Shown here: positions 16,521 to 41,984 of the stretch, piece by piece | Position numbering within the stretch: position 1 is the first letter of the stretch | Layout of the letters: each line of letters opens with the position of its first letter | NCBI GenBank assembly: GCA_044892525.1 | Contig: CM097885.1 | Coordinates: 217,496,001-217,560,000, forward strand | Direction: 5' to 3' | DNA length: 64,000 bases | DNA from: Schmidtea polychroa | Taxonomy: Eukaryota | Translations under genes and position numbers: made by a program | Notes under the pieces: generated by a model | The model's input: only the letters and a program-made list of their open reading frames with translations | Databases searched by the model: none | What the model was told of the DNA's origin: nothing

Positions 16521-16926
16521 TATGAGAATGTTCGTGGCACCCTCTGGTAAAAAAAATCTTCATTTTAGATGCATGTTGAGCTATAGACCCGTGTTGGGCT
16601 GAGTCGAAAATTTAATCGTTGAAAAATAAGAAAGTAGGGAAGTAGAACATTAAGAAAAATAAAAATAAAATAAATAAAATCAGAAATAAAATAGAATAAG
16701 GTATAAGGAAAATAATAATTAAGACATAAGAATTAAAACAAAAAATAAAATTAAGAAAAGATTAAAATAGAACAAGTTGACAAATAAATAAAGAGGAATT
16801 CAAGAAATAATAAGGAAATTAAGGAAATAAATAGAAAAACATATTAAAAATAAAGAAAATAAGGAGAAAACAACCTAAAAACAAGAAAATTATATTAAAT
16901 TAATAGAAATAAGCGGTACTCAACTC

Positions 16927-17060
16927 TGATTGGTCCGCACAAATAAGAATTTGATATATATACAACTACCAAAAACATTAAATTTACTGTTAACCCCGAG
17001 CATTTCATAGGTAAGAAAAAATGTTTACTGTTTTGACTGTTAACCCCGAGCATTTCATAG
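16927..17060 (+). promoter_or_regulatory. LTR core promoter: inverted CCAAT, TATA-like box, predicted TSS 16986, 25-nt exon 1 and 50-nt intron 17011-17060
   Basis: ctgATTGG at ~16927-16933 and TATATA at 16955, 31 nt before 16986. AG|GTAAGA donor at 17011 and TTTCATAG acceptor at 17060. The same geometry occurs in the diverged solo LTR (TATA 58878, TSS 58848). Confidence 0.6.
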
Positions 17061-19466
17061 ACATCTACAACTCACGGAGACTTATTTCAAGGATCAGCAA
17101 TACAAGTAGAGCAACAGTTAATTCGAAAAACTTCACAGCAATTCGAACTCAGTCACAGCAATCGACATTCGACGAATTATCATCAGACTAATTTGGAACG
17201 ACTAACGTTAATTTTCCGATTCAGCCTAATTCCATAGTAAGGGATTTTTATTTATGATATTGTTTTTCGAAGTTAATAGTAAATATGTATATTTAATGAG
17301 TAATTAAACTTTTAAATTTAACCAGACTCTCTTTTCATTTGATCCTGAATAACGATTTTGATAAAGTAAATAATTTAAATGTTTAAAAGTATGTGTTGGT
17401 AACAGGTGAACTCTTACATAATTTTTATGGATATTTATTTTGAAGTGATAGTTTTATGATTTCTAATATTAACGAGTAACGTGGAGTTGAGATACTCCAT
17501 GTCATGGTATGAGGTGCCTTCGGGAGCTCAGCCGGTGGACATGGAGTATTTCAATCACGCAGCTAGATTGGGCCGAAATGTGAAGGCTTCTTCACGGGTC
17601 CAATTGCTGAAGGACTTAAAATCTGTCAGAGTACCGAAATATAGACCGAAAGGAAACCTTATGAAATTTTCGAAAATAGGATATGTGCTTCACAGCGACT
17701 GAGGGAGTTCTCATATTAACTCTGTATTGTCCAGAGTCGTCTTACAAGACATTCATGCCACTTCTGTCTATAAATCCGAACTTACCATGTGGGGGAAAAT
17801 ACCATTAAACATCCATCGCTGGTTTTTCCAACATATCGAGAAGTTGAAATTGCATTCGGTAGACTTTTGAAAAAGTAAATCTAATTTAGGTCATCTCTTT
17901 CAGATGCGACATCCAAATCTTAGCATATGATGAGGAATTTACAATAAAGGAAAAGTAAAACATAAAACCACAATAATACTGTATTCAATCACATATATTA
18001 ACAAAATCTGGTAATACCCATTGAATAATTTTCATGCTGTTGCGTCGAAATATCCACTACTGAAATATGCTTCATAGAGTCTAGTTGGCTGGTTCGTAGA
18101 GATCTTCCATCGTTCAAAAGCATCCAATATTGAGGAAATTACGAGTCGTAGTAAATAAATCCAACATCATAAGCTCAGATGGGAATCGACACGCGATGTA
18201 ACATTTGCAGTTCGCTCAGTACGGTTGATAGTTACAGATAAAATTTCCATCGAATAGGCACCCATACATACAGACATACTGCTAACATAACTATGAGTAG
18301 CGTCATCCGGTCAGAAATATGCATGAGAAACAGCAGAATCATTCCGAATGCCTCTCACCGCAGGGAATGCCGCCATGTGTCACCCTCTCTAGGATTCTTA
18401 GTGTGTGAGTAGTAATCAGTGGTCCTATTAGATAATGCTGACATGAGATGTGACTTCCAGATGACTGACTCTTAAATTTCACTACTGATAAAGGCCATTC
18501 GTACCACTAAAAAGATAAGCCAAATAACCAGTAACCGACTACTAAGATAAGGGACTCTCTAAAGTGCACTCATTAAAGATAATTTTGCTTAAATTAAATA
18601 TTCTAATTAAAAATCGAAATTGTTGAAGGGGTATTTTAATTAATAACCGAAAATTCAAACCAAACTTTATAACTAAACCATAGGAAGTTTTACCTAAGTG
18701 TTGTAGAGGTTTATCGTAATTCTAATTAGATGTTACAAATAATAGTAGTAGCCTTCGAGCCAAATTTAAATTAACTAAAGTATCTACAGGAATTTTTGGG
18801 TTATAAAATAGCTAGTAATATTGTAGTTAAATTTCTCATATTCCCTGTAAATGACGTATTGTAATAGAAAACTAAATCCGATAACAAATTATTATGTAAT
18901 TACAATATTTTTACGATGCTATATTTCTACGACGATATCACCGTATGGTATGGATAAGGGGTAATCATAAAATAGTGACGTATAGTTTATACGAAATTAC
19001 GAGTTGTTACTTATTCCGCTACTTGAGGTAAGGGTGCAAGTTTTTACTAGTTGCATTTGGTCCAAAAACCTTATTTTGCATTAGAATAACAACAAATAAT
19101 CAGCGAAATTTAAACGAAGTGTCGTATAGTGTATTTGTAATGAAACAGGGTTATTCGCTCCGGTATGAATAAATCCGTAAATTGCCTTTATGTGCGATAG
19201 ATAGAAATCCAACTCGAACGCGATAGACGAAAATTAAAATTTTTACAAATAATTTGCATTCGTCAGGGAAGCAATCAGGGCGTTGGGGAATAATTTTCAG
19301 TAAAGGATACGTAAAATATTAGTAATCAAGGGTGAAGGGAGGGATCCTGTTTCATCGACTCGTCTTGTTTTCTTCCAGCACTAAGTATCCAATAGCGAAT
19401 AAACCGTATATCTGATCCGAAATTTTTAGATATAGTCACCATAGTTTTCTTCTTTAGCCATCCATT

Positions 19467-20219
19467 ATGTTATCAAACAACAAATCAGCTCTACGTCCCT
19501 GCTTCTCCTGCTCAGATAAAAATGCAGTGATTAAAGATCTTCAAGCCCAGATCGGTCGATATAAACGAAAAATCGACGAGCTGGAAGGGACATGGTTTAG
19601 TCCCGCTCGGATGAAGGAGATCCAAAAGAAGCTCGATCGTAGCGAGCATTGCCGGGACGCGCTAATATCTGAGAGCCGTGCCCAAAGAAGTCTAATCAGA
19701 GAACAATCCGAGGCACTGCATAAGGTTTACGTGCAGGCGGCTACAACCCGAAAAATTGTGCAGATTCCCATCCGAGAGGCCGATGACATCTTTCCGCCTC
19801 ATCACAACCTTTCCTCGAATCCATCTCCACCGTTCAAGAGACCGTGCCGAGACTGCGTCGAAACCGAATTTTCCCCCAAGCGACCAGATGTTGTCGTCAC
19901 GGGTACCAGTAAGCCCCCCAATGCTAGTCCATCTGTATCAGTCACCCTTCTGCAAGTGGCATCTTCAAGCAAACCCAAGCGCAAACAACTCTCTCGTGCG
20001 GAGCGCAAGAAGAGACAGCGCGAACGCGCCACTACCAAGCCAAACATCCCATCAATAGAGGACTCAACCAACGGTGGCAACTCTCACGTGTCCATCGACC
20101 TAACAACGGGACCCTCAGCGCGAATCATATCAGCCGCTGGCGTAACGTGGGAAGAGAACGCTTCCGAGTTTTTTAACCTCGACGAATTATTCGCCGACGC
20201 TGAATGGGAGAAACAATAA
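19467..20219 (+). CDS. LTR-encoded 250-aa protein of unknown function (CxxC, coiled coil, basic NLS-like tract, acidic C-terminus)
   Basis: Intact in both LTRs; homolog in the solo LTR. Preceded by a pyrimidine tract and AG (19456-19457); AATAAA at 20343. Confidence 0.8.
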   Translation: MLSNNKSALRPCFSCSDKNAVIKDLQAQIGRYKRKIDELEGTWFSPARMKEIQKKLDRSEHCRDALISESRAQRSLIREQSEALHKVYVQAATTRKIVQIPIREADDIFPPHHNLSSNPSPPFKRPCRDCVETEFSPKRPDVVVTGTSKPPNASPSVSVTLLQVASSSKPKRKQLSRAERKKRQRERATTKPNIPSIEDSTNGGNSHVSIDLTTGPSARIISAAGVTWEENASEFFNLDELFADAEWEKQ

Positions 20220-20760
20220 AACCCCAGTGGCGGTCAGGATGAAGAACAAGGATCCGATCTATGTTGATTATGATGTTTTCTCTTCTTTCGACAAACATTA
20301 GTAAAGTGTACAGCTGAATCCTTGTGTCATAACGTTGAAATTAATAAATCTTGTTGTCTTACACGTTTTCGCTCATGAATAACTAGACTTTAATTAAGTG
20401 GGTTGAGTAGAGAACCCGCCAGATCTAGTGAGAAATTCCCAATTTGTATTCAGCGAATCCTGATAAGTGGTTGTGTAAGGAAATGGACGTAAGCCCTTCT
20501 AACGGCAGTCGTGAATGGGAAGTCGAGGCCTCAGCAAGGAGTAGTTTTAAGGCAGAAGCTCACCTGCTTGTTGGCGTCTCGCCTGCATAGTGCAGTACCA
20601 ACGTGAAGTGATTCACGGGCACTATGTTGGAAGAAAGTTATGTGGGGTTTCACTCCAGGTTGACAAATCGGTGGCACCTTTTATTCGAGATGGACAATCA
20701 ACCCTTAGACCCGTCAACATGGTAGAGTGGTCAGCCGAGGTGTAACCCCAACATGATTTT

Positions 20761-20778
20761 TGGGGGCTCAGCCGGGAT
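20761..20778 (+). promoter_or_regulatory. Primer-binding site, tRNA-Pro type
   Basis: TGGGGGCTCAGCCGGGAT matches the classical tRNA-Pro PBS TGGGGGCTCGTCCGGGAT at 16/18 and starts 7 nt after the LTR end. Confidence 0.85.
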
Positions 20779-21091
20779 CTACAATCGATCGAAATTTCTA
20801 TTAACGAATGCGAAATTCACCGGGATTTTCATAAAAAATTAAAGGGATTTATCACATCGATTTTCTGTTTCCAACCGACCATTGCTTGACGAATGCAAAT
20901 TGACTATTGATTATTAACTTATATTAGGAACTAAGTAGAGAAAATCAAAATGTAGATAATAGAAAAATTAAGGATATAAATAAAGGAGATAAAGTAGTCA
21001 AATTAAATAATTAACAATGGTTAAAGAAACCAATTAACGAATTAACTATTAATTTACTACATATTATTAAAACATTACTTTTCCAACAGCT

Positions 21092-21577
21092 ATGACAGAA
21101 TTCGCGAACCAAATGCAACAACTGCTCAAGTTTATCGATATAGAAAACGACTCCCTAACAACACTGACGCATAAAAGAGAAAAAATCAACGCGATATTAC
21201 TGCAAGCAATCGGACAAACACCAGTCGTACCTAATCATATGATATTAGCCACAGGCCTAAGTCGCCCAGATGGAAAAATAAACCCCGAAACCGTATATCA
21301 GTGGTATCAAGAGAGATTGAACCACCCAACATTAAATCTAGATTATCAGCGTCTAAAAGACTCACTAAATACAATACCAGATGCAATCGAACAAAAAATA
21401 CAGGAAAAAATTAACCAATTACGAACTTGTATAGCCTGCAAACTCCGTCCTATTCGCGTATTATTCTTGCCGTGTGGACACCTCAGTCACTGTGAAGCGT
21501 GTGTAAAAGACCTAAAAAGATGCACGATGTGCAAATATGAAATAAAAGAGACCCATATGGTCTATTATGGCGAATGA
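21092..21577 (+). CDS. 161-aa protein with C-terminal IAP-type (C3HC4) RING finger, no BIR
   Basis: CIACKLRPIRVLFLPCGHLSHCEACVKDLKRCTMC at the extreme C-terminus. Acceptor ttttccaacag lies 2 nt before the ATG; AATAAA at 21682. Confidence 0.85.
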   Translation: MTEFANQMQQLLKFIDIENDSLTTLTHKREKINAILLQAIGQTPVVPNHMILATGLSRPDGKINPETVYQWYQERLNHPTLNLDYQRLKDSLNTIPDAIEQKIQEKINQLRTCIACKLRPIRVLFLPCGHLSHCEACVKDLKRCTMCKYEIKETHMVYYGE

Positions 21578-22180
21578 AACGGCCGGCGATGTAACAGCAA
21601 GTATACGATGTTTGAACAAGAATGCATGAAATTGTTGAAGTAACACGTACTGTTAATGATTCAATCTTTATGTTTATGATAAATAAATCCGTCTTTAAAA
21701 AGTTTTGATGATTAGGACTAATAAAATTTGCATGACGAATGAATATTTGCGTGTTTGTTTTGTTTTAATTTTTTTTTCGGAATCAAATGAAGAGAGGGTT
21801 GAATAACGTGGAATTAGTCCCAATATAGACTGCAGGGGTACAAACCGAGCCACCTTCGGGCGGTACGTCTTATTGCAAGAACCCGTTGGGAGGGGATAAC
21901 TGATCAACCCAAGTAAGAAGCGTAGGGCGGGGTACCATCGCATATGATGAGAAGTTTTTGCGACATGACTGATCACCATGCCAATGTAGAAATGGATCAT
22001 CGCGATCGTCGTGCGTTTTGAGCAAGGGGGGAAAGGGGAAACACTCCCAAGCGGTAAAGATTAAGTCGACAAATTAAAAGTAGACAGAGAAAATGGTAAA
22101 CTAGAGTAAAAGAAGAAAAAGAGAAATAGAAGCATGCAGAGCGAGGAATATTGAAGCCGAGCAGTCGAATAATCCAGCCG

Positions 22181-22669
22181 GAAGGAGGAAGATTGAGCTG
22201 TTGAATAGTGCCAGCCAGTCGTAAGGTCGAGTCGTGAAAAGTCCAACCGATCAAGAAGGAGGAAGATTGAGCTGTTGAATAGTGCCAGCCAGTCGTAAGG
22301 TCGAGTTGTGAAAAGTCCAACCGATCAAGAAGGAGGAAGATTGAGCTGTTGAATAGTGCCAGCCAGTCGTAAGATCGAGTTGTTGAATAGTCCAACCGAT
22401 CAGGAAGGAGGAAGATTGAGCTGTTGAATAGTGCCAGCCAGTCGTAAGATCGAGTTGTTGAATAGTCCAACCGATCAGAAGGAAGAAGATTGAGCTGTTG
22501 AATAGTGCCAGCCAGTCGTAAGATCGAGTTGTTGAATAGTCCAACCGATCAGAAGGAAGAAGATTGAGCTGTTGAATAGTGCCAGCCAGTCGTAAGGTCG
22601 AGTTGTGAAAAGTCCAACCGATCAGGAAGGAAGAAGATTGAGCTGTTGAATAGTGCCAGCCAGTCGTAA
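22181..22669 (+). repeat. Tandem array, 74-75-bp unit x ~6.6, in the element's 5' leader
   Basis: Units start at 22181, 22255, 22329, 22404, 22478, 22552 and 22626. Each unit is an internal dimer (gagctgttgaatagtgcca / gagttgttgaatagtcca). Confidence 0.95.
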
Positions 22670-23979
22670 AGGCCTAGAAAAGCGAGAGATAGCAGTTAAG
22701 CTACAATGAGATAATATTTAAATTACTAGTGATATGGAATATTAAAGCTAGCTAGAACAAATTGAATGTAATTTTGAAAATTCGAGTTTAGAGAGGAAAT
22801 AAACGAGCTCGTGGAAAAGAAAATAGGATTATAATGAAAAAGGAAAGGGAAGAAGGAAACGAATTAAAGAGATAATAGAAAATAAAGAATAGATGAAACG
22901 ATGATAATGAGTAAAGAGGAAAGTAACTAACTAACTAAAGGGATCCCAGTGAAGTAGAGAAACTCTACGGAATATTTTTTTTTGGTTAAACCGGGAAAAT
23001 GCATTTTATTGGTTCCAGAGTAGAACCGAGCTTAATAATAGTGAATATGAAAAGTAAAATAGCGACAACAGCGCAAAAGGATTAGGAAAATGAAAGGGGG
23101 GTAATAAGCAGAGACCGACAACGACCTATTTTTACTATAATTGATAACGAATAGATAATTATTACGACTTTATAGATAATTGTTACTACCCCATATAGAT
23201 AATTTAAAATCGACGGAAAATACGGGCTGATGGGATATTATAAACCGCAGACAGGATTTCACAAAAGATAGGGGAAGCACAAACAGAAACCTAAAAGGTG
23301 TCTGTTTTTGAATGTTGTAGAAAGAATGATGAAGTCGTGTAAGCAAATGCAACACGAGATCATTTTTTCATTTTAGATATCAAGCCAATCCAGCCAACCA
23401 AGACAATCCAGAACCTGCACAAAAGGAATTCGAAGAAAATCGACAATCAACCAAGGATAAATCCATTCAGAACCCGCACCGAGAGACACAGCAACCGGAA
23501 GACTCCAGAACGGAAGAAGTATTAGCAGCCATCTGCCAAGGATTAGTAAATCTCCTCAGGATCTCAGTAGCAGATTCATACAGAATATTTATCGAAGGAA
23601 ACACAATCAGAACCGAACGCGTCCAATTCAATAGCCACTAATTACCAAGAAGCGTAAGAAAGGAATCACGGATAAACCCAATCTTAGATCTTCTAGTAAG
23701 CCAGGAGACGTATTATTTTCAGGAGACGAATTACAACAACTCAAGAGAGGACGATCCATTAAACATCAAAGAGGAATATCACAAGGATCCAGAAGAACCA
23801 ATCAAGTACCCATATTCGACCAAGAAAATCTCGGATATACCCCTAGTCGATCTCGAAGTAGAGAAAGTCTGTCCGATATCACTAATAGTTTAGCAACGTC
23901 AACCGAGGAATTATCAGCCCAAAGTTTAGTCACATCGTTAGACAATTTAAAAGAAACAGACGAACCTAGAACACCAATC

Positions 23980-26900
23980 ATGACGAATGTCGTAAAAACC
24001 GACGAGTATAAAGAGAAGTTCAGAGGAGAACCGTTCAACGGAAATGCAAACAAGCTAGCAACGTTCATAACTAATTTTGAAGTTTATATCACTGTGTGTG
24101 GATGGACACCCGAAGCAATTAGTAAAAGGATGCCGTTGTTTTTGTGCGATAGTGCATTAGAGGTATATTTAGAAGCTAAAGAGAGAGACACGAAATTAGA
24201 AAAGTGGGAAGATATTAAAACATTCCTGAAGAAAACCTTCGGAGCCAGTAAGCCAATCAACCAGGCGTTGGGCGAACTAGCAAATAGGAAACAAAGAGCA
24301 AACGAATCGATAACATTATATGCCAGTGAATTGCGGAGATTAGCGAAGAAAGCAATGAATGGAAAATTACCCGAAGAAAATCTGATCGGTTATTTCATAG
24401 AGGGATTACGCCGAGAAGAAGTAAGAGCCTCAGTAGGTTGTCAAATGTGCAAAACATTAGAGGAAGCCATAGATTGGGCTACAAGATGCGAGCTCCACCT
24501 TCCAGCTCAAATGAATCTTATGCAAGAGGAGGGAAGGATAGCGACAGCAATAGCGAAAGCGGATAACGGAGATAACAACAATCAAGAACCGAAAATGAAT
24601 CAATTTATACCAGGAGCGCACCAAATTTTCAAACCACCACAAGGACGATCAAACGGGAATAATGGTAATCGTAACAACCCGAATAATGAGAACAATTTCA
24701 ATAATCGGCGAAATATGAACGATAACAAGCAGTGCCGAACATGCGGTAAACCAGGACACTGGGACAGAGATTGTTATAGAAATTCAAATTGTAATCGTTG
24801 CGGACGGCGTGGACATACCGAAAATGTATGCCAATTGCGAGGCTGTTTTAACTGTGGTCAGCCAGGTCACATCTCCAGAGATTGCCGAGAAAGGGGCCAA
24901 CAACAACGACCACCACAGCGAAATAATAATTATATAGCGAATCCGCAACGACAAAGTAACCCTAACGAAGGAAAACAAATGAACGTTATGCAGGAAATTT
25001 CGCAGATGAAACAGATGATGCAACAAATGATGAGACCAAGACAAGAATCAGCACCACAACAAACCCAGAATATACGTATGATGAGGAGTACCGAAAATCT
25101 CAACAATTATGAAGTGCATCAACATGTACAAGAATGGCAAAGGCTACAGGCCGAGGAAGAGAGGATAAAACAAGAACGCAACCAACAACGACAAGAACAA
25201 CCATTGCGAATAAATATGATGAAGTTAGTAAAAGACATGAAGAGCCAGTATTGCTACAATTACGGGAAAAGCCCAAGGGTAGTACCCATGACTGAACCAG
25301 AAAAAGTAAAGGAAATAACAACGGAAATGAAAACAGAGAATTCAACCACGATTTCAAAAGGAAACCAGAGAATTCAGAAAATATTCTGGAAAAAGATAAA
25401 GGATAAAATCGAAAAAGAACATAATAAAGCGAAAACCGAGACAGAAGATGAAAATAACAAGAGCGAGGAACAAACCAGTCAACTAAATCACCAAATGCTA
25501 CAAGAATCAGAATCAGAAGAAACAACAATATTCGAAAGAAAGAAACTAAAGAGAGTACCAAGGATGAGAAACTTGCAAATCAATATGATGAAAAGGACAA
25601 AAGATGTAGCATCGTCAGACGAAGAAGAAGATTATGTAAGTAGTTTGGGTGGAGAAATACTACAGCCGAATGAAATAAGCGAACCCTCAAAAGGGGAAAT
25701 CAAAGAGGAAGAAAGCGGAAACGAGATAACCAGTGAAAGTGAAGACGAAGATATCGAAATAAAGTTGAGAAAAGCAAGGGAGGAAGCGATAAAACAGGTA
25801 GCCGAAATACTCCCAGTAGTAGTGAGGAACCAAGAGTTCATCGACGTAATACCATTCAGGCGATTCGTGCAAAAAGTGATGAAATTGGAAAGAAACGAGA
25901 AAGATCTAATACCAAACGAGGAAAAATCAATTATAAAAAATTATATGGAAAAAATGAAGCAGGCCGATACCACGCGGTATGTAATAAAAATTGGAACGAG
26001 TAGAGGACTTGAAAGAATGTGGATAAAAAATACAGTCACCGACGAACTTTTCGATTGGATACGAGAACATTTGGGAAGTTCGAGAAAGAAAGAATATCTG
26101 TATCAATACCAAGGAGAACAGATCAAACCAGATATGCACTTAGTAGATGCACTAATATGGCCAGGAGAAACGCAAATACTGAAGTTGCATAAAGAAAAAC
26201 AACTAGCCAACCTTTACGACTGGGCTAAAGATGCCAAGGCAGAATATGATTTTAATATCAAATTGAAATTAGAACAAATAAAACAATGTACTCTGAGACG
26301 AAACCTGGATAAGCTGATCAAACAAATTCAAGAACAAGTAGAAGACAACTGGGATTTACTCATCACCAGACGAGCCCCAGCCATGTACGAACTAATGAGC
26401 CGGTTGCGAGATACAGAAATGCTCCGAATGAGTGATTGGAGAACCATAAATTTGATCCACAAATATGGAAGGTTAAGAGAAACCCAGCCACAGAGGTTGG
26501 AAATAACCATATGGTTACCGAACGAAGAAAAACGACGAATAAAAATGAGCAATCAGAGTACAGTGGATGACTTGGTATCAAAAATAAACCAAGAGATAAC
26601 GGAAAAGGTACGTAGCGAAAGTAGTGATGGTATGGTGGATGATGTAGTCATGATGTACGATAAGATAATATTACGAGCGGAGGACGACACCTCGTTAAGC
26701 GAAATGGGTATGTGGGACAATCATCAGATAATCAGGATAGTACCAATGGATGAATTCCGAACAAGAGATGTAACATATCAAAAAGAAATACGAGACCGGA
26801 TGAAAACGTTGTATCAAAAATCTACAGAAATAATTGAAATCCACCAACAATGGTTAAAAGAAAAAGAGCTACAAGGAAAAATCACGAAATTAAATACCAG

Positions 26901-29900
26901 ATCCTGCAGACGAACCCCATGGGAAAGAGTGTGGAATGCAGAAAATAAGGAATGGGAAATCCGGAAAGGAATCTTCGTAGAAACAGACATTGGTGAGACA
27001 GAAAGTGAATCGGAGGAAGAAGAAGAGGAACCCCCAGAATATGAAGAGGAAGCAAGGGGACAGACATCAGATGACGAAAGCGAGACGGATGTCACATCAG
27101 AAAGCGAAAATGAAGCGAGACATATTCATGCAATGAGGAAAAAGGAACGTGAATATGCTGATATGGACGGCGAGGAAGCGACGGAAGCAAGAGAACGAGA
27201 AGAGAAAGAAAGATATAAACAATTAGGCGATATTTTAGCAATGGGAGCGAAAAATCAAAAACGCCAGGTAGTAGCGTTGGCTAATATCATCTTAAAAACA
27301 TCAGAGAATATCCACAATCTGAGAGGAATGGCAAAGGCAATAGAGGAATACCGGCAATATAATGAATGGTATCCAGAACAGCTAGAACAAATTATTCGAA
27401 AATGGAGAAATCAGGAATGGGCACAAGACACCCAGGAGAGGTATCACATCCGAATCAAGTATCCGGACAAGAGCATCGAGGAACTAGAGGTGCATCCAAC
27501 AACAAAAATTAGAGAATTAAAAAAGAAATTAGCATATGAAACTCCATTCCATCTGCAACTGTTCGGAAAATCACTAGACGATAATGCAGACGTCGGGATA
27601 ACACCCATGAGATTGGAAGAGACAAATGTGTTAACAATGGCAGAAACGTTGGGGAAACCGTTAAAAAGGAAAAGTAAAATTATTAAACCAACAAAAGGCA
27701 GTTTGAGTACTCCAAGTCCGAACAAAGCACCAAGTAAATCTAATGAAACTGAAGAAGTTGAAGAGATAATCCTGGAAGATAGTGACGATGAACCAGGAGA
27801 AAGATCACCGCTATTAGTGAGATGGCCGACAGGAGCCGAAATGTGGACTAATAACCAGCCATCAACGAGTTATCAACAACCAACGAAACTGAACATCGAA
27901 GAAATCATCGACAATACTACGGAAACCGAAACGGATGAACAATTCCAGAAGCAAAGAGAACCAACGAAAGTAACACCAGAAAGTCAAACCGACAAAATAA
28001 TAGACGAATGGAATGAGTGGCTAAGAAATAACGATAGCTCATTACCCAGAACGGATAACGAAAGAAATCCGAATTACGAAAATACCAGAGAAGCAGGAAC
28101 GATGATGGAAAAACGGGCAAAAGGAAGACCCAAGAAACAAGGAGAAAAGTCTGAGTTCAAAACCAAAGAACAATTAAAGCAAGAACAAGGGCAAGTTCGA
28201 TTAGAAAAATTGGATAAAATAGTATGGGATCTAAAGGAAGCCCAACCAACGATCGAAAGAGGAGAAAAATGGATACGAGAATTGTTAGAAGATATGTTAA
28301 TAATAACAAACCCACAACTTCGACGTTTGTGGCAACGGAAAGTAGCCAGTACGGAAGCTAGACAATTATGGCACACCATTTCGGGGATAATCCCAAAGTT
28401 AATCAAAGAGAAAACGAAAACCACCAAAACGGATTGGGACGAAACAAAGAGAGTGATTGAGCAGCTCACGACAAATGCAAATGATGACGAGCATCACCTA
28501 GTGGTAATCACTTATTTGATGTATAATTTGATGGGACTAGCTGCGAGGAAAATACCAAATAAACAGTTTGCAAATCATGTAGAAATGACCGTTTCAATCA
28601 TAGAGAATACTATTGAACCACACATTATTCGTGCAGGAGGATGGAAAAGACTGATACAAGCGCCACGGAAAAATGAGCAAGAAAGGTCGATGCAAGTTAG
28701 ATTGAAAAAACTGTTAAATGAACTAGAATGGGAACTACCGATGAAAGATCCCGCAAGCAGAAAAGCATCAATAAATTCGTTAATGATGACTATGATGATA
28801 TGGATGTTGTGCACAAGTGGAGCAACAGGTTTCACCATCTACGATTGTGATAACATGATAATGAGAGATAAATACTCATTGAGAGACATAGAAGAATGCA
28901 GACAAGCCTCACCCAACAAATTGGACATCGTGAGAACAAAAGTTACTTACCATGTATATCAAGAATCAGATTTCATCAGAACGCAAGCAAGGGAATGCGT
29001 AGTATCAAAAAAGGTACTCGCATATTACTGTGGACAATATTCGTATTCGACTCTTATACTACCTGGTCTGGATAAAGAAATCGTATCAATACAACGAGAG
29101 GATTGTAAAGAGCTATTTAGAACCGGAGCGCTAAAAATGCATAACGGAGTGACGATTCACGGACAAACTGGAATGATTAAAACCGAAAGTGTTTACGTAT
29201 CCGGAAAAGTAAAATCATCAGATGGGTCATGTAACGGAGGTACGTATACGATCCGAGGCGAGGTAATATCGGGAGTAGTAGTGATCGAGTCGTACACGGT
29301 CGAATTAAAAGAATACGAAGCGCAATTTGACGCAAATAATTATCAAATGAAGACCAACCCAGCGTGTAAAGCTACAGAAAACGTATGCAGGACAGGAGTA
29401 TCAACTATAATCTATGAAGCTAATACCCAAAAATGCCGACTCCAACTGTTAAAAAGTGCTTTGTTCAATGAAGTAAAAGGAGAAATATATGAGAACGAGA
29501 ACGACGAGGATGGAAACGACAGAGTGAGAATGCGAAATGGAAAACCAATGCCACCATCTCCCAGAGAAAAGAGACTTTCAACGCAGAAGACACCAACAGC
29601 ATTAATCACAGACGATCCAGATCTAGGTATGAGATTTATCAAAGAGAAAGAAACCACCAAATGTGACAGTATAGTATATAAAACCAATTACGCAGGCATC
29701 TATATGTCGAGACAAATAATCGATAGAGCAGTGGGAAAGATAGCAACGGAGGACGTAAAACTATACTTATATGCAAATAATAAAATGGATTTTCTATTTC
29801 ATCGCGGACAAACGACCTTGCAAAAAGTATATTACGATCTGATACAAAACGATTGTTCATTGAATAAAGAAATATTGAAAACAAAGCTAGCTATTGCGAT

Positions 29901-32900
29901 AACGCACCCAGATAACACGATGCCATCACTCCCATTACCAGATGGACACTTTGGTAGAATGGTAGGAGAAGTAATGTACACATACCAGTGTACCAAGACG
30001 TATGCACGAATGCCAGAAAAATCCATACTACCCGAAAAGAGATGTGCAAATGAATTAGAAATCCGTTATAAAGGACAAAATCGATTCGTCCAACCAGTCA
30101 CTAGAATTATGAATCCAGTGGGTTTCTACCCAAATCTCTTTAACTGTTCTAATGCATACGGACCTTTATATGAAAGGCCCGATGGGAAATGGATGATGTT
30201 ACCGGGAAAAACCATATCCGAGGAGCCCAAGAAATTTGGATTAATAGAACTCGCCACAGAGCTGGATTTCAAACCTATAGACGTGTCAAACGGTGGTATG
30301 TATTCCCCAGAAGATCTAGAAACAGCACGACTTAACGTACTCTTTCCAGCCAGACGAGAATCCATTTTGTCAAATATGGTTACAATAACGGGGGGAACAA
30401 ATTATCAATCAGGCCCGAATTACGAGCTGCTATTATCGCCAGACCATTTTCAACAGGCTACGTCAAACATGATGAAAGCAATGTGGGGAAGATTCTTAGT
30501 TTTTGGACAAATGATGGCCGGGATATTAGGGATCATACTCATAATTCAGATAGTCAGAGTAATACTAACACAAATGTTAGCTTGTTTCGATATATACAAG
30601 CGGGAAAAGAAAGTTAATTGGAAAATGATAGTAGGCTTCTTACCATTTTTAGCTAAGACCATGGTATTACATGGCCACTCAAAAGACATTCATCGGATAA
30701 AGCGATTGATTAAAATATTAACAAAGATTAAAGGAACCGACGAGGAAGTAGGCAGACGATTCCGGAAAGTAATGTACGATGAAGCAACAAGACGACAATT
30801 GAAAAAGAATAAGCCAAAATTCTTGGACCGATTTAGAAGCCAATCATCTAACAGCGATAGTGACGACGATGATAACGGGAACGATAAATGTCTTTATCCA
30901 AACAGAAACCCAAACGAAAAACCAATGGAAACGGCACCATATTGGGAAAAGGAAAAGACAAACACCTGGATCGCCAATGGAAGCTATATACCACCGGATA
31001 TCGTGGGACCACAAACAGCTTTGACCATGACACAAAATATGTATCCGCAATTACCGAGTCAACCCGGTATGCATTATATGCCAACACGACGTACCAAAAG
31101 TGTAGATCAAGCAGATGACGTAAGAACAATAGCAGCGATGAGTTTACCTGGAGGTCCAGCAGTAACAGTTATGATTCAAATCAATGGTAAAGAAACCAAT
31201 GCTATGATAGACACCGGAGCTAATGTATCAGCGATAGCGATTAATCAAATCCCCAGTAAACACTGGAAGGATATCGAATCAACAACAATTCACATCATAG
31301 CATGTAGTAAAGAAACAGTGGACGTGGTCGGAAGATGGTGGACTACATTGAGATACCAGGACAACGAAATTGAAACGTATTTGGCAGTAATACCAAAACT
31401 TAGCGTACCATGCATAATCGGAACGGATTTGATGCCAGAATTATTAAAAGAAGTCGTAATAGACTTAACAACTATGTGTCTAAAAGACAAAACCGGTAGA
31501 ATATGCAAAATGAATGCAGTAATCAGATGTCCAGAAAAAATAATAGTACCAGCAAAATCGCAGATGATTTGTCAGATAAAAGTGGATACGGGTATGGAAG
31601 GAGAAGTTATCTTTGAACCAAGCAAGTCATTCGAAAAGCGACGAGAATTACCACTCGCAAGAGAAATAATCACAATAAACCAAGAAGGAGTGATACCGCT
31701 CAACATCACGAATTTCGAAGAGGAAGACAAAATCATTTATGAGAACGAAAAATTGGGAAGATTGACCCCAATGATGGACATAGAATTACCGAAAGTGACC
31801 AACGAGATGATCAAAGATGATGAATTATGGACAATAGATAGTATGTTGTTGACGAATAATGAAAAGAAAAAATTACACCGATTGTTGGTAGAATATAAAG
31901 ATATATTCGCCATCTCAGACTTAGACTTGGGTACATGCGATGTTACCCTACATGCAATACCCCTCATAGATGAAACTCCAATTGCATTAAGACCATACAA
32001 GCTAGCAGAAATGCAAAAAGAAATAGCCGAAGCAGAAGTACAAAAGATGCTAGACGCAAAAGTAATCGAACCAAGTTGCTCACCCTGGCAATTCCCAGTG
32101 GTCATGGTGAAAAAGAAAGATGGCACCCAACGATTCTGTATCGATTATCGGAAGTTAAACGCAGTGACCAAGAGAGATACCTATCCATTGCCAGACATCA
32201 ATGAGATGTTATTGATGTTGCAAGGGGCAGCATATTTTACTTCTTTAGATCTAAAAAGTGGATACTGGCAGATTAAAGTCAAAGATGAGGACAAAGAGAA
32301 AACAGCTTTCACGTTGGGACGAGATCTATATCAATTCAGGAAAATGCCATTTGGACTGACCAACGCACCAGCATCATTTCAACGGTGTATGAACTTTGTC
32401 ACCCATGGAATCAAACAATGTATGGTATATATTGATGATTTACTAATCTATTCAGCGACATTTGAACAACATCTAGAAGATATCCGAAACGTATTTATTA
32501 GATTAAGACAGTGGAAACTCAAACTCAAACCATCAAAATGCGATTGGGCAAAGGAAAAAGTCACGTTTTTAGGACACATAGTGTCAGCTAAAGGAAAGGA
32601 GCCAGATCCAAGAAACATTGAGAAAATAAAAACATGTCCAGCACCGAAAACTGTCACCCAAGTTCAGGAATTTCTAGGATTATGCGGATACTATCGCAAA
32701 TTTATCAAAAATTATGCAGGAATTGCAAAACCAATCCAGGAATTAGTAAAGAAGGACATTTCGTTCTTATGGGGGAAGGAACAACAAGAGGCGTTTGAAA
32801 CGCTGAGAGACAAACTAATCGAAGCACCTATCCTCGTACACCCAGATTTTAAGAAGCCATTTCTATTGGCAACGGATGCAAGCGGGTACGCGGCAGGCGC

Positions 32901-35900
32901 GATTCTGGGACAATTGGACGATGAGGGAAAAGAGAGAGTAATCGGGTATTACAGTCGAACATTCAAAAAGCACGAAAAGAACTATTCGGTAACAGAACGA
33001 GAAGCATTGGCTATAATACAAGCTATCAAACACTTCCGATATTTACTATGGGGACATGAGATATGTATAACCACAGATCATCAACCATTAGTGTGGTTAG
33101 GGCAACATAAAGAAGCGTCCAGTAGACTGATGAGATGGGCCATGCAATTGCAAGAATACTCCCCATTTATAAAATTTAAAGCGGGAAGAGCAAATGCCAA
33201 CGCCGATTGTATGTCAAGATTTATTTTCCCAGATTTGGTGGATTCAGAAATGCAACGCATATGCTTGATAGTAGCGGAAGATTTGGATTTCTGTCAATTA
33301 CGAAAGGACCAACAAGAGGACGCGGAATTAAAACAAATTATCGATTATGTAAAAACCGGAAAGACAGATGTATATGCGAAAGACCAAAAATTAAAAGAAC
33401 ATATGGATAAACACCGACACCGATATATTATAGAGAAAGATTGGTTGCTGATAATGGATGGGGAAAAACGATTAATGTGTATACCGGAAAACCGACGAAA
33501 AGAGTTACTAACGCAATATCACGATGGGAGATTGGGAGGACATATGTCATCGAAAAAGACGTTAGCAAGAATGAAACAGAAATATTTTTGGCCTACGTTA
33601 ACTGAAGATGTAACCGAATGGGTAAAAAATTGTCTAACTTGTGCAACCAGGAAGAATACTGGATCGAAATGGAAAGCACCTTTAACGCCAATGCCAGTAC
33701 CAATAGAACCAATGACAATGATATCCATGGACGTAGTTGGTCCACTACCAGAGTCAGATAAAGGAAACGTTTACATTCTAGTGATCACAGACTTTCTTAC
33801 GAAATTCCCAGAAGCATTCGCGATGCCAGACCAAAAAGCTAAAACAATCGCAAAAATTTTGGTAGAAGAGATATGTTGCCGATATGGAACACCAAAACAG
33901 ATATTAACCGATCAGGGAACTAATTTTATGAGTGAGATAATGAGCGAAGTAACAAATTACTTCAAAATAGCAAAACTAAGAACATCTCCATACCACCCTC
34001 AAACCAATGGGATGACGGAAAGATTTAATGGAACACTTATACAAATGTTATCAAATTACGTCGATCGTCACCAACGAGATTGGGACGAATATATAAACCT
34101 ATGTCTTATGGCGTACAGAATGTCAATTCACGCATCAACGAAAATGAGCCCATTTAAATTAATGTACGGAAGAGAGTGCAACATGCCAATGGACCTGGAA
34201 TACCAACCACCGATATCGCAGTATATGGAGATCGATGATTATGTTACGAAATTCAAGGAAAGAATGCAAGAAATTTGGGAAACTGCGGGATTAAATATCA
34301 AGTTCTACCAGGAAAGTTATAAAGATTTACACGATCGAAAGAAAAACGTGAAGCAACATACGTTCCAAACAGGTGATTGGGTAATGATAGAAACCCCGGA
34401 ATTAATTCCAGGAACCACAAAAAAATTACAACGCAACGGAAAAGGACCATATGAGATCTTATTCGTAGGCGAAACTAATGTAAGAGTGAAATTGGTAAAT
34501 AACCCCTTTACCAGACCAATATACGTAAACGTGGCACGATGCAAATCAATTCCGAAAACAGCCACTAGTCAACCAGAAGGCCGTACATTAACCACACGTT
34601 CGCAAACCTACCGAATGAACATGATGCAACAACTCGCAGAACCGATCACTGGACGATTAGGTATCCAACCATCAGAAGCGGAAAAGATTGTAAAAGAGGT
34701 AAAAATTAGAATACCTGGATGGGCAAAAGATCGATTAGATTTCGAAATATTAGGAGGATTATTGACGATGATCGAGAACTATGCAAATAGAGAAAGGACA
34801 CACCCATTATTGCGAGTAGTCAAAAGCCAATGGCCAATATTATTTACAATAACAGATCACTACGGAGACACACCATTACACAAACTCATGAAAGTAGGTA
34901 ACAACGAGCAAATACTAGAAACAATAGAAGCATTTCACGACTGCAAGCGATCAACAGAACAAACAAACAACCAAGGTTACACACCATTAATGATAGCCGC
35001 AAACAGAGGCAAAACAAAAGACATTATAACCGCATTACTCGATACTGGATCGAAAATAACTACACAAGACCACGGGCGGAAAAACGCTCTACATCATGCT
35101 ATCGAAGGGAGAAGTACCGAGGCGTTCACGTCATTGATGGAACTACTATCATATGAGGACAATCGAGAAGTCGGAAACATGTATGATGGATTGTTAACAG
35201 CGATCAAAGAAAAACTGACGACAATTACCGGAATATTAATTACATGGAGAAATCCAATTCAAAACGATTATATGATCAACGTAAACGAAGCGTTCACGAG
35301 AGGAGAGAACACGCTGATGAGAGAAGCTATGAAAGGACATCATTTATTCGAAATTCCGAATCAATTACTAGAACGAGGGATAAAATTCACAAATCATAAA
35401 GACGAACAGTTAGCAAAAAAGCGAATCGACACATTCGAAGAATCCCTATTCCAATTTACTAACCAAGTACGAAATAAATATTGGGAAACGGTAAGTGTGT
35501 TATATATGATGGACACAATGAACAACATCCGCGAGAATTACCTGGATATTATCCAAATACTTACAGCAGAGGAACGAATCAATAATCCAAACGGAAAGAA
35601 AACGAAAATAAGGTATGAGAAATCCAGGGAATCAAAGTCAACAACGAACCAAACGGTCACAAACAACGTCATCGAAACCAAATCAATGAGTATAGATCAA
35701 GAGGCAATAATACGCAAAGCAAAAGAAGTGTTCTTTGAGGAAATGCTAGAGCTGCCAGACGAAATAATATTGTCCAAAATAATAAAAGCCGTACACACAT
35801 ACGCAAGAGATCAAACCACGGGTTTAGATATCGGGAAAATCAAAACCTTCTTGCCTCGAGCATTTACGATGGTAACGAAGGATTCCAGAACACCCCTACA

Positions 35901-37833: not shown

Positions 37834-37969
37834 AAAGGAATATGACTGTATATAATTGTAAAAAGTAAGTATATCTTATGTATATAACAGTACTATATCT
37901 TTATATAAGCGCGGTATCAATATTATACAATAACGGGAATCATAAAATAAAACTAAATTTACATAAGAG

Positions 37970-38353
37970 TTGAAAAGTGTATATAAATTAGGAATGGATC
38001 AAGGAAATAACGAAATGAACCACAATACAGTAACTGAAGAATTATGGAAGCAACAATGTGCCGTATTAGCACAATTAGTGTCCAATTTGCAAGAACAAGG
38101 ATTGACGATGCACAGAAACCTGATCGAGAGTATGAACAGAGGATTTAGTTATTTGAAGATAATTGAAGACCAGAGGTTAAAAATCGAACAAATGCAAAGA
38201 GAGATAGAGAGGATAACCCAATATAGCCGTCGACAGGAAATTGAAATAGACCGAATGAGGGAGGAAGCAGAACAGATAGAAATAGAAGACTGGTCGGAAT
38301 GGCTAATGAATAGAGAGGAGAGCGGACACGAAGCCGACTCTTCCGAACCCTAA
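37970..38353 (+). CDS. Small coiled-coil accessory protein (probable start ATG 37994)
   Basis: E/Q/R-rich heptads; AG 2 nt before ATG 37994. Confidence 0.65.
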   Translation: MKSVYKLGMDQGNNEMNHNTVTEELWKQQCAVLAQLVSNLQEQGLTMHRNLIESMNRGFSYLKIIEDQRLKIEQMQREIERITQYSRRQEIEIDRMREEAEQIEIEDWSEWLMNREESGHEADSSEP

Positions 38354-38438
38354 ACCAAACCTAGCTTAAAATGTAAATAATTGTAAATAAAATATCGAAC
38401 CTGTATCGATAAGAACTACTTGTACATATAATTATAGA

Positions 38439-39827
38439 ATGGATAAACGACAAAGAGAAGAGTTCAGAGAGATTGTCGAGCAAGTCCGAAAATCTACAAC
38501 GATCAGAATACACAAACATGTTATGTGCGGAATATGTGAAAAGTTGTTAAAGGAACCTCACCAAACGCAATGTGGATGCCGAGCATGTAAAGAATGTATC
38601 AGTGAAGCAATAAAGAATAGACCACAGAGGTGCCCGGTGTGCAAAGAGACACTAATATCGAGTTTAGAAGACACTAACGAGGATAAAGCCGCAGTGAAAG
38701 ACATGTTAAACACCAACCTGGGATGCAAAAATGCCCCATGCGAATGGAAAGGAGTAATATGGAAGGTAGTACAACATATGGGAGAATGTATGTACAGAAT
38801 TGGCCAGTGTGAAAGGTGCCATAAAACCATTCGAGCAAGCGAAGAAAAAGAGCATCAAAGGCAGTGTGAGGAGAGATTGGAAAGATGTGAACACTGTGGA
38901 GAAATAGATACGTGGATAAATCTCACCCTCAAACATCACAATGTCCAAGAGGAGAGAGTATGTGCGGAGTTCAGTGGGGAATGCCCAAACGGATGTAACC
39001 AAGGGGAAATAATGAAGGTGGCACAGCATCTAAGGGAATGCGAAAAGAAAAGAATGACATGTGTACTAGGTAGATGGGGTTGTCAGAAATTACTACACCG
39101 AGGTGAGTTACCACATCATTTAGTAGAAAATGCTTCAACTCACGCAGAAATGTGGTCGACTGCGTTACGAGAAAGCGAAGAGAAAGTAAAACAAATGGAG
39201 ATAGAGATAACATCGTTGAAAGTGTTAGTCAAAGAACTACTAGAAGAAAGGGAAGCGTTCGAAGAAGCCCGAGCAAACATAAAGATGCAAATAAACCGAA
39301 TAGAAATCAGTAATAATCAGGCCAAGGAGCTACATCAGAAAATACGGGAAATAAATCTAAATGAGATAACCCCAACAGCACCCTACATATGGAAAATAAC
39401 GGGAGTAAAAGAAAGAATACGAAAAGCAAAAACCGGAGAAGAGACAAGAATAACAAGTCCTGCATTCCATTCTTGGAAAAATGGGTACAAAATGAAAATG
39501 AAGATATATCCCAACGGGGACGGAACCGGATTAGATACGCACTTTTCGATTTTCTTTCTATTATGTAAAGGAGAATACGACGAAATATTAGAATGGCCGT
39601 TCCAGGCAAAAATCGATATTACTCTGATGAACAACCAAAGTATACATGAGCAAAGCTTCAAAACAACGGGGAATCAAATAGCTTACCAGAGGCCCCTCAA
39701 CGAAGAAGGATCAGCAACAGGAGCACCTACGTTCATCTCACAACAAAGAGTAGAAGATATGGCGAGAAATGATACCATATATATCAAGATGACCGTGAGG
39801 AAAGAGGAGAAGGGTAGAACGGAGTAA
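38439..39827 (+). CDS. TRAF: Full-length TRAF homolog (RING, TRAF zinc fingers, coiled coil, MATH/TRAF-C)
   Basis: CGIC..L.EP.QT.CG.R.C..C..CPVC RING; repeated CxxC/HxxxC fingers; MATH motifs YIWKI, SPAF...GYKM...YPNGDG...HFSIFF...GEYDEILEWPF, GAPTFI, DTIYIK. Confidence 0.95.
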   Translation: MDKRQREEFREIVEQVRKSTTIRIHKHVMCGICEKLLKEPHQTQCGCRACKECISEAIKNRPQRCPVCKETLISSLEDTNEDKAAVKDMLNTNLGCKNAPCEWKGVIWKVVQHMGECMYRIGQCERCHKTIRASEEKEHQRQCEERLERCEHCGEIDTWINLTLKHHNVQEERVCAEFSGECPNGCNQGEIMKVAQHLRECEKKRMTCVLGRWGCQKLLHRGELPHHLVENASTHAEMWSTALRESEEKVKQMEIEITSLKVLVKELLEEREAFEEARANIKMQINRIEISNNQAKELHQKIREINLNEITPTAPYIWKITGVKERIRKAKTGEETRITSPAFHSWKNGYKMKMKIYPNGDGTGLDTHFSIFFLLCKGEYDEILEWPFQAKIDITLMNNQSIHEQSFKTTGNQIAYQRPLNEEGSATGAPTFISQQRVEDMARNDTIYIKMTVRKEEKGRTE

Positions 39828-40020
39828 CCAATCGAATAATGTGGTATATAATAATCTGTATATATCGGTGTATATAACCAATAAAATATTATATAATAAT
39901 AGTATGAAAACCCTAAATACGAAAACCCAAAAATGATGCGAAAATTCCCCAAGAAACAGTAAATAATGAATAAATTCCTTTTTCATAATAAAAAGATTAA
40001 TCGATGTCTATGATTTAGAG

Positions 40021-41076
40021 ATGACACAAGAGAAAATAACCGAAACTGCGATAGACCCAACCAAGGTCAACAAGACACAAATTCCCCGAGAACATAACAA
40101 AAAATGGAACAAAGTAATGTTCCAACTAACTAATCTCACCCGAAATCACATCGAAGAAACTAGAGAAGATGAGAATAGTCAATACCAATGGTTAATACAC
40201 AACTTAAGAGCGGAAGCAGAAGCATGCAAAAGAGCATCAAAATGGGCGTCACTGGAAAATACCCGCCAAGAAGCACACAGCCACTACTTAAAGCAGCTGG
40301 TGCAGGAAGCGAGAAAGAGACTTACCGATGAGAACACCAAGCGCGAAGCGGAAAAACAAATAGCAGACAGGAAAATGATGCACTTAGTGGCAGAAGCGAG
40401 GAAATGGAAAAGACAAAACAGAGAAATGAAAAAAGAGATGAAAGAATTGCCCATGAGACTCGGATATGAAAGCGAACAAGGTAAATGGGAGGAGAATTTA
40501 ATAATAAAGGAAGAATTGAAAAGGTTGAGAAAGGTCGCCGCCCGAAGCCAAACCTGGCAAACAAAGGCTATGGAGTTTGAGCGACATTTGGCAATGAAGT
40601 GCGACATAAGAGAGCACGAGAATGCCGCAATGGAAGAGATGATAACCCAACAAGCGGGACGGGTTGTGGAATTAGTAAATCAGGTAGAAGAGATGAAAAG
40701 AGACCTTAATGGATTACAAGGATCGCTGGAACAAAGAAACATGGTCCTAGCGGGAAAAAACAAAAAATTAGAAAACGAAAGGAAAATGTACACCGAAAAT
40801 ATTAAAAACTTAGAAATAGAAATTGAAAAATGGAAGGGCGACGAGAAAGTCAAGGCCCTAGACAAACAGATAGAGGCGAAAGATGAAGAGACAAGGTATC
40901 TCACCTATCTGCTCGACGAGGAATTGAATATCACTCGAGCTCTAAGAGACGAAGTTAGTGAATTGAGAGCTCAAATTCCCCAATATTACCTACCATACGA
41001 CCCTATTGCGATACAGTTACATTCCGCGGTCGATAGTGATGAAGGTTATGTAGGCCAGGAGGAAACCTTCGTATGA
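40021..41076 (+). CDS. 351-aa long coiled-coil accessory protein
   Basis: Intact ORF with continuous charged heptads; no recognisable catalytic motif. Confidence 0.75.
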   Translation: MTQEKITETAIDPTKVNKTQIPREHNKKWNKVMFQLTNLTRNHIEETREDENSQYQWLIHNLRAEAEACKRASKWASLENTRQEAHSHYLKQLVQEARKRLTDENTKREAEKQIADRKMMHLVAEARKWKRQNREMKKEMKELPMRLGYESEQGKWEENLIIKEELKRLRKVAARSQTWQTKAMEFERHLAMKCDIREHENAAMEEMITQQAGRVVELVNQVEEMKRDLNGLQGSLEQRNMVLAGKNKKLENERKMYTENIKNLEIEIEKWKGDEKVKALDKQIEAKDEETRYLTYLLDEELNITRALRDEVSELRAQIPQYYLPYDPIAIQLHSAVDSDEGYVGQEETFV

Positions 41077-41245
41077 GGGTGGATGAAAAGATGAAAAACT
41101 AAAAACCGGGACGTATATCCCAAACAAAAAAATTAAAGTACAGTAAAAGTATTTGAGGGACTGTAACCCTGTGTAAATAAAAACGATATAAATGTATAAG
41201 TATAAGTCGCACTGTAGCGCATGATTAATTGTAAATATTATAGAT

Positions 41246-41944
41246 ATGAAAATCGAGGAAATGATAGAAATTATGAGCGACGTAGAAGAGGGAGAGATTG
41301 AGGCAGAAACAACAGAAACACAAACGCTAAAGGCCGAGTTACGGGAAGAGAAATACGAAAACGGGAGATTAATAAACAAATACCTGGAGGACCGGAAAAT
41401 GATAAAGGTGTTAAAGAAAGAGTGCGAAGCGTTGGGGGAAATAAAAAGAGAAGCGGAAGAGGAAAATGAATGGCTACACGAACAAAGGAAGCGAGGGAAA
41501 AACTGGGAAAAGATAGCGGAAGAACTATGGAAAGAGAGGGCAAGCTTCAAAGCAAAGGAGGTAATCCAAGACTACTGGAAAACTGAGGCGAAGGAGCGCC
41601 AAACAGCTATAAATAAATTAAAACGACCTCTAGAAGAAAACCAACGGGAAAGTAAAGAAATGAGGAAGTGGGTCCGCAAATATAGAGAAATAGAAAGAAA
41701 ACATCAACAACAAAATTACCTGCAAGAAAACGAACAAGATCTCCTACAAATCGAGCTAAAAAGAAACCTTGAAAAGAAAAGGGAAGAAATTAGACGCTTG
41801 GAAAAAGAAATTAGACATCTAAAGAAAGAAGCCCGTGAAAAAGACCGACAATTGGAAATGCTGCCCGAGTTAAGACACAGGGTAATTAAAGCAGAGTCCA
41901 CCTTGATGAGAATCGGCGAAAATAATCCAAATCAGAACCATTAA
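41246..41944 (+). CDS. 232-aa coiled-coil accessory protein
   Basis: Intact ORF, E/K/R-rich heptads. Confidence 0.75.
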   Translation: MKIEEMIEIMSDVEEGEIEAETTETQTLKAELREEKYENGRLINKYLEDRKMIKVLKKECEALGEIKREAEEENEWLHEQRKRGKNWEKIAEELWKERASFKAKEVIQDYWKTEAKERQTAINKLKRPLEENQRESKEMRKWVRKYREIERKHQQQNYLQENEQDLLQIELKRNLEKKREEIRRLEKEIRHLKKEAREKDRQLEMLPELRHRVIKAESTLMRIGENNPNQNH

Positions 41945-41984
41945 ATTAAGGGTCATTAAAACCAATTGTAAATAAACATAATGA

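Follow-up and report, generated by a model that had tools for sequence, protein, structure and literature searches.

A duplicated putative first exon at the tail of a predicted LTR intron in Burro-like giant gypsy elements of Schmidtea polychroa

The LTRs of Burro-like giant gypsy elements in Schmidtea polychroa carry a short direct repeat, whose first copy is placed as a first exon and whose second copy forms the tail of a predicted cap-proximal intron. This is a real and conserved feature of a known element family, and DNA-level evidence strongly supports a variant of LTR replication that we did not find described. We consider it highly probable that the 5′ end of the RNA is spliced, that its 3′ end is left unspliced, and that strong-stop DNA lands on the second copy. 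Read from the sequences, such a splice-and-rebuild scheme would account for the co-variation of the two copies, the position of a sequence scar, the splice signals, precise intron losses and fossils of shifted splice sites.

Elements and LTR units in the window

The window is a stretch of 64,000 nucleotides (assembly GCA_044892525.1, contig CM097885.1, positions 217,496,001 to 217,560,000). It contains a full-length element of one family (family A) and a solo LTR of another (family B), with the following features.

16592..47040, + strand: full-length Burro-like giant gypsy element, family A, with TG..CA ends and a 4-bp TSD (CCCG)
16592..20753, + strand: 5′ LTR, family A, 4162 bp
16592..16985, + strand: predicted U3, family A, 394 bp, with a CCAAT box at 16929-16933 (as ATTGG) and a TATA box at 16955-16962
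16986..17010, + strand: copy 1, the predicted exon 1 of family A, with a putative start site at ~16986 and a spread of about −3 to +1
17011..17060, + strand: predicted 50-nt GT-AG intron 1, made up of donor GTAAGA, a 25-nt spacer and copy 2
17031..17035, + strand: hypervariable bases 5′ of copy 2, the putative minus-strand transfer junction (G at 17035 here)
17036..17060, + strand: copy 2, the intron tail, with a branch-point-like TTAAC at 17040-17044 and an AG acceptor
17061..17236, + strand: predicted exon 2, ending at a second donor GTAAGG (17237)
19458..20219, + strand: LTR-internal ORF of 253 aa, stop to stop; the AG at 19457 is a candidate acceptor for donor 2
20761..20778, + strand: PBS-like 18-mer, 7 nt beyond the 5′ LTR end
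23635..37833, + strand: polyprotein ORF of 4732 aa with gag, CCHC, in-frame viral fusion glycoprotein, PR, RT, RNase H, IN and ankyrins
42879..47040, + strand: 3′ LTR, family A, repeating the unit (copy 1 at 43273-43297, copy 2 at 43323-43347)
55227..59383, − strand: solo LTR, family B, 4157 bp, TSD AAAG, U3 of 535 bp
58824..58848, − strand: family B copy 1, the predicted exon 1, with TATAAAA at 58878
58777..58823, − strand: family B predicted 47-nt GT..AG intron, with copy 2 at 58801-58777 and a hypervariable base at 58802
58550..58555, − strand: family B AATAAA, ~220 nt past the acceptor, a candidate poly(A) signal and R/U5 border

The family-A element, 30.4 kb long with two LTRs of 99.95% identity, is a Ty3/gypsy LTR retrotransposon. 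Its polyprotein has the domain order gag-PR-RT-RNase H-IN (Pfam positions 167, 2512, 2825, 3046 and 3283-3455), with the fusion protein domain PF24664 at 1983-2322. It carries a gypsy-type RT, a DDE integrase and true LTRs, and not the PLE RT, GIY-YIG and pseudo-LTRs that define PLEs. Among its accessory ORFs, Pfam identified RING, plus MATH in the ORF at 38391; neither BIR nor BCL2, domains associated with Burro/GYPSM1, was found at E≤0.001 in the eight ORFs scanned, all of at least 150 aa. The PBS-like 18-mer is one that we take to resemble tRNA-Pro. No plain polypurine tract was seen ahead of the 3′ LTR (42841-42878), where a conserved motif was present instead. This motif has 663 matches in the genome and is common to the LTR groups A, B and C defined below. 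TGATT borders both inner LTR ends (windows 42841-42878 and 20754-20778). A 74-75-bp tandem array occupies 22158-22669, between the RING ORF (21071-21577) and gag.

The planarian element Burro/GYPSM1 is ~30 kb long, with ~4-kb LTRs, MATH/TRAF and RING ORFs, and a polyprotein of ~4700-4800 aa that contains gag, CCHC, an in-frame mononegavirus-like fusion protein before PR-RT-RH-IN, and ankyrins (PMC6431247). The window element shares its size, LTR length, polyprotein order, ankyrins, MATH and RING, as matched by the published description. A search with RT-IN gave 117 proteins with no named Burro among them; the Burro-like metagenome proteins P0035-P0052 have the in-frame fusion domain before PR-RT-IN and 46-51% identity. 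The family-B solo LTR is nested in another repeat (48947-55227 and 59383-59464), which has a sister copy at 48947-49534 and a 432-aa ORF at 50990-52288 (− strand).

The first-pass annotation of this DNA had described, in both LTR families, a 25-mer duplicated as the tail of a GT-AG intron. The positions, the 50- and 47-nt intervals and the TATA boxes were all confirmed; in family A, TATATATA starts at 16955, 31 nt 5′ of copy 1. Exact 25-mers repeated at a spacing of 30-100 nt occur nine times in the window and were absent from 20 locally shuffled windows. Three of the nine are the LTR units, five fall in the 74-bp tandem array and one is in an AT-rich repeat tract.

Co-variation of the two copies and the transfer junction

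For a wider sample, LTRs were picked by the conserved motif ahead of the 3′ LTR, which bears no relation to the duplicated unit. Two variants of the motif define group A (176 matches) and group B (143 matches), and the remaining sampled LTRs form group C. Among the matches listed, we took 90 of the general motif, 40 of group A (away from family-A places already sampled) and 47 of group B. After removal of nine duplicates from 162 parsed LTRs, 153 were left (59 A, 46 B and 48 C), mostly from one contig of this one genome, so that they are a sample and not a census.

The design, consisting of TATA, a copy 1 of ~25 nt and a 44-54-nt GT..AG intron ending in copy 2, was present in 87 of the 105 LTRs of groups A and B (52 of 59 in A, 35 of 46 in B) and in none of the 48 in group C. 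The length of exactly 25 nt given in the first-pass annotation is the modal one (30 of 87 elements) but no rule, with 26-32 nt in 46 of 87. All 87 elements have GTAA or GTAG donors and YAG acceptors (CAG or TAG), and the TATA-to-donor spacing is 54-57 nt in 86 of them. Of 38 subfamilies, 36 have a branch-like YTRAH, which in most cases lies 15-18 nt from the AG. The sequence features of a U2-type intron (GT donor, branch point, YAG, minimum length) are thus all found here. Since the branch-like motif is within copy 2, the 25-mer would have two roles, that of the first exon and that of the branch point and acceptor. One LTR with the group-B motif, L221 (G000:C1:15148469), has CCAAT and TATA without the duplicated exon and has no close relatives in the sample; it is possibly a separate lineage without the design.

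Copy 1 equals copy 2 over 24 nt in 79 of the 87 elements; one edit separates them in five, two edits in two and four edits in one. The 87 elements have 41 distinct exon-1 sequences, a median of 10 edits apart. The copies co-vary over these 41 sequences. The DNA-level question raised in the first-pass annotation, whether mutations in copy 1 recur in copy 2, was answered in the affirmative by the same 41 sequences and by single co-mutations in which both copies had changed together (L047, L272).

After hand correction, nine elements had unequal copies (among them L269, L287 and L222), and no mismatch was common to two of them. Two had changed after insertion in one LTR only (L103, L132), three were mismatched in both LTRs, and the remaining four had no partner LTR in the stretch examined; in all, partner LTRs were located for six of 11 elements sought. 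The three mismatches seen in both LTRs, all singletons, are allowed by the splice-and-rebuild model as one-round states, though we counted them against it. No pair with different U3 and the same exon 2 was found in the sample, and the idea of L269 as a fresh chimera found no support, its nearest U3 and exon 2 being of the same type.

We propose the following cycle. Transcription would start at copy 1, as suggested by the TATA and CCAAT spacing and by the scar position in relatives without the design. The cap-proximal intron would then be spliced out, as indicated by the conserved splice signals, the 44-nt length floor and the shifted-site fossils. In the 3′ LTR, the intron would probably be mostly retained, being far from the cap and having a weak acceptor; the weakness may be attributed to copy 2 doubling as exon 1. 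Strong-stop DNA would consist of exon 2 and exon 1, often with an extra untemplated or cap-derived base, which may be the cause of the scar, and would form a gapless pairing with copy 2 plus exon 2. Extension would copy the spacer, copy 1 and U3, so that the intron would be restored and copy 2 overwritten by exon 1 in each cycle. Intronless daughters would result if the DNA paired at copy 1 instead, or if the 3′ end had been spliced. The likeliest cause of the 3′ retention of intron 1 would be dependence on the cap-binding complex. This complex stimulates cap-proximal splicing, and long 5′ exons splice worse in yeast (PMC12358841). Four sequencing runs (presumed RNA, consisting mostly of diverged relatives), compared with 16592-23700, gave no intron-1 joint and no cover of 17066-17302, a result that weighs neither for nor against splicing.

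If strand transfer ended at copy 2, its trace should lie there. The six bases before copy 2 differed in 83 of 120 within-subfamily pairs, drawn within nine subfamilies of motif-picked elements, whereas the corresponding bases ahead of copy 1 differed in 11 of the 120. Among 51 family-A elements, there were 16 junction forms before copy 2 against one before copy 1. The search pattern used for 34 of these elements holds three bases ahead of copy 1 constant, but the 16 that were picked by BLAST agreed (eight forms against one). Exon-2 windows varied less, with at most five forms compared with 9-10 junction forms per large subtype of family A. Both LTRs of an element carried the same spacer in 28 of 28 pairs, which included 14 different spacers. 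The variation thus arises during copying.

The base adjoining copy 2, which by construction differs from the base before copy 1 (mostly T), was C in 17, G in 16, A in 16 and T in 10 of 59 junctions. G or C therefore adjoined copy 2 in 33 of 59, compared with 17% G+C in the spacers. The hot spot 5′ of copy 2 fits a scar of strand transfer in reverse transcription, and the G/C excess fits untemplated addition by RT or copying of the cap. RT can copy a cap into cDNA. Untemplated addition has been described for the RT of Tf1 (PMC3185545).

The hot spot of group C, read by eye, lies ~25-30 nt past TATA, a place that is quiet in groups A and B, where the scar follows one intron downstream. Where the repeat is longer than 25 nt, promoter-side bases precede copy 2 (L296, L137 and the L131 type), which points to copying in the direction from copy 1 to copy 2. 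Several spacers contain partial extra starts of exon 1 (L076, L098, L062 and 17023-17035 of the window), and these are probably relics of shifted strand transfers. The first-pass annotation had interpreted the unit as a landing site at which strong-stop DNA overwrites copy 2 with exon 1; the co-variation, together with a scar at copy 2 and not at copy 1, supports this interpretation.

Group C, the most numerous group in the sample, is abundant and gag-only and spreads without the intron, so the intron is not needed for mobility as such. It is probably a non-autonomous Burro relative, judging from one unit sampled (L304/L305, G000:C1:77255000-77272500), in which three ORFs scanned gave no RT match. 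This unit consists of ~13.6-kb tandem units with an 877-aa zinc-knuckle ORF. In L306 (G000:C1:186485114-186500378), the motif at the start of the 3′ LTR occurs 11 times with a period of 1524 bp; by its sequence, this array is satellite-like and appears to be made from a Burro LTR junction.

Intron losses, splice-site changes and alternative explanations

In family A, 123 LTRs with the intron were found against at least 16 precisely without it, a lower bound set by the exact pattern used. These 16 LTRs represent 10 elements; six pairs lack the intron in both LTRs, one of them with four extra bases. On the family-A tree, which is weak, intron loss requires ten changes, of which strongly supported branches compel only three. 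Intronless copies in two other subfamilies were not each other's nearest relatives. In the motif-picked set, 12 of 99 assessable LTRs of groups A and B were intronless (~12%, counted by eye), six records being left out (three truncated or rearranged, one unresolved, one of group-C type and one of another lineage). From their sequences, intronless copies recur without a visible lineage and seem not to spread. L036 and L056 were rejected as an LTR pair discordant for the intron, L056 being without an LTR start.

Some starts of exon 2 look like fossils of shifted acceptors or donors. In a triple-copy event (L052/L053, with the same flank), the retained unit has GA instead of a GT donor. Five of the 15 exon-2 start offsets listed end in AG (background 7.7%), namely the triple and offsets of 5, 6, 9 and 31 nt; the AG-ended deletions could alternatively have come from microhomology. 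Among the offsets without AG are one GTAA, a 10-nt offset listed four times, and four of 2-5 nt that look internal. Exon 2 begins with GTAA in 11 of the 87 elements, which looks like the result of past splicing from a donor four bases further on. The donors of the 11 are GTAAGT in eight, GTAAGC in two and GTAGGA in one, and 10 of them thus have GT or GC four bases in. These cases represent about three lineages, not 11 events. In L223, L298 and L271, exon 2 opens with a tandem repeat of the final 6-7 bases of exon 1. The precise intron loss in both LTRs of young elements and the shifted-site starts of exon 2 lend further support to the proposed cycle.

The second donor (donor 2) was kept in 61 of 61 family-A elements, so this site stays unspliced in the copied RNA. 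Because donor 2 is never lost, these RNAs can also retain an intron simply by remaining unspliced, and we count this against the splice-and-rebuild scheme. An AATAAA lies 190-340 nt past the acceptor, 3′ of donor 2, in 36 of 42 exon-2 types; shuffles expect 9.6 of 42, a comparison that implies no probability because the types are related. No canonical AATAAA was found at the usual place in the family-A element of the window. From these positions, R is probably ~0.3-0.4 kb and U5 would be ~3.4 kb. With so short an R, most of the long transcribed LTR would be U5. For the LTR-internal ORF we found no Pfam family and no homologue among 365 candidates. An LTR ORF of family B (55761-56588, − strand) is likewise preceded by AG. 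The combination of donor 2 with an AG before the ~250-aa ORF (17237-19457, 19458-20219) suggests that a spliced mRNA might be made from the LTR alone.

Retroviral RT is known to delete between direct repeats. The same might happen here without splicing: unspliced RNA would start from copy 1, RT would jump from copy 2 to copy 1, and the shortened cDNA would land on the 3′ copy 2. Such jumps would also homogenise the copies, put the scar at copy 2 and give intronless daughters. However, they provide no reason for a GT after copy 1 and a YAG ending copy 2 in 41 lineages, and they leave the branch-like motif, the 44-nt floor, the GTAA-extended or AG-shifted starts of exon 2 and the GA-donor triple unexplained. 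A jump rate of nearly 100% across a 25-nt repeat would also be required, and we regard this explanation as unlikely.

It is less likely still that the RNA starts at copy 2, with copy 1 as a U3 relic and the scar as an ordinary U3/R border. Copy 2 would show a hot spot at its 5′ edge in the same way as any U3/R border, and reads that start at copy 1 and are spliced would have the same sequence as unspliced reads starting at copy 2. The promoter argues otherwise, as TATA and CCAAT are spaced to copy 1 and are ~80 nt from copy 2, while the scar of group C is 25-30 nt past TATA. Moreover, this reading offers nothing to hold the copies equal over 41 sequences; no mismatch is common to two elements, and promoter-side bases occur before copy 2.

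Some gained introns are flanked by short direct repeats. An old insertion or tandem duplication with such repeats could have been homogenised after insertion by gene conversion or slippage at the DNA level, and the two mismatches in one LTR only (L103, L132) did arise after insertion. This is the least probable of the three explanations and, in our view, a very improbable one. Junction variants and intron losses are common to both LTRs of very young elements, and this concordance means that they arise in reverse transcription. The ends of the repeat sit at the proposed start site and at the donor in all lineages, and the spacer is unlike the sequence before copy 1. Plain tandem duplication was rejected on the unlikeness of the spacer to the 25 nt before copy 1, an R formed by the 25-mer alone on the scar at copy 2 and the conserved AATAAA 190-340 nt further on, and spliced-leader trans-splicing on the difference of the repeat between the 41 lineages.

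Relation to known systems and significance

In the splice-and-rebuild scheme, strong-stop DNA pairs with the 3′ R, as it does in the R-mediated minus-strand transfer of retroviruses and LTR elements (PMC12789967). In contrast to classic R transfer, splicing would be needed to make the 5′ R colinear with the 3′ R, and strong-stop DNA would land on an intron tail that is rewritten by the transfer itself. HIV-1, foamy virus and HTLV-1 also have splice sites in their LTRs, which are left unused in the genome RNA. No exon duplication that restores a removed intron is known in these viruses, in contrast with the scheme proposed here. In the TART element of Drosophila, perfect non-terminal repeats evolve together, which is attributed to a template jump of RT. 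TART differs from the present elements in being a non-LTR telomeric element with long repeats and no intron.

The splice donors of HIV-1, foamy virus and HTLV-1 are in R and likewise inside the LTR (PMC12789967; 10.1101/2023.01.28.526022), and splicing within an HTLV-1 LTR fragment has been observed in vectors (10.1101/2023.01.28.526022). Donor 2 precedes a candidate poly(A) signal, an arrangement similar to the U1-based poly(A) suppression of HIV and foamy virus (PMC12789967), and this analogy suggests U1-based masking of poly(A) as a possible function. Penelope-like elements likewise pass spliceosomal introns to their progeny, with a different RT class and pseudo-LTRs; the routes proposed for them use either an antisense template or an RNA left unspliced, and do not involve splicing with later restoration of the intron by a duplicated exon (PMC3846280). 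The available parts of the Burro/GYPSM1 account (PMC6431247) contain nothing on LTR introns or a duplicated first exon. Among titles and abstract openings, no published description of an LTR intron with a duplicated first exon was found; Grohme 2018 and a Burro1 stem-cell study (cited in PMC13465017) are outside this scope and could mention it.

More tentatively, and at less than even odds, the elements may embody a principle new to LTR elements, in which splicing makes R and the duplicated exon 1 rebuilds the intron in each cycle. The intron would then also distinguish the two LTRs: cap-dependent splicing in the 5′ LTR would load U1 on donor 2 and mask the poly(A) signal, and the uncapped 3′ copy would be unspliced and polyadenylated. 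Intronless daughters would be near-dead, and the arrangement may have arisen more than once across LTR superfamilies.

The copies appear to record in DNA the spread of start sites, untemplated additions by RT and the use of alternative splice sites, and they fix the position of the U3/R border in Burro elements. The question of how retroelements retain introns, raised for Penelope, can be tested here by RNA sequencing of 5′ and 3′ ends. In the textbook view, once an intron has been removed from the RNA that an LTR element packages, its progeny no longer carry it. The present elements appear to escape this loss through a 25-base duplication and ordinary first strand transfer. A cap-proximal intron benefits expression and export, and perhaps allows escape from the silencing of intronless transcripts. 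An element of this family could gain such benefits, in the manner of a host gene, without losing its intron.
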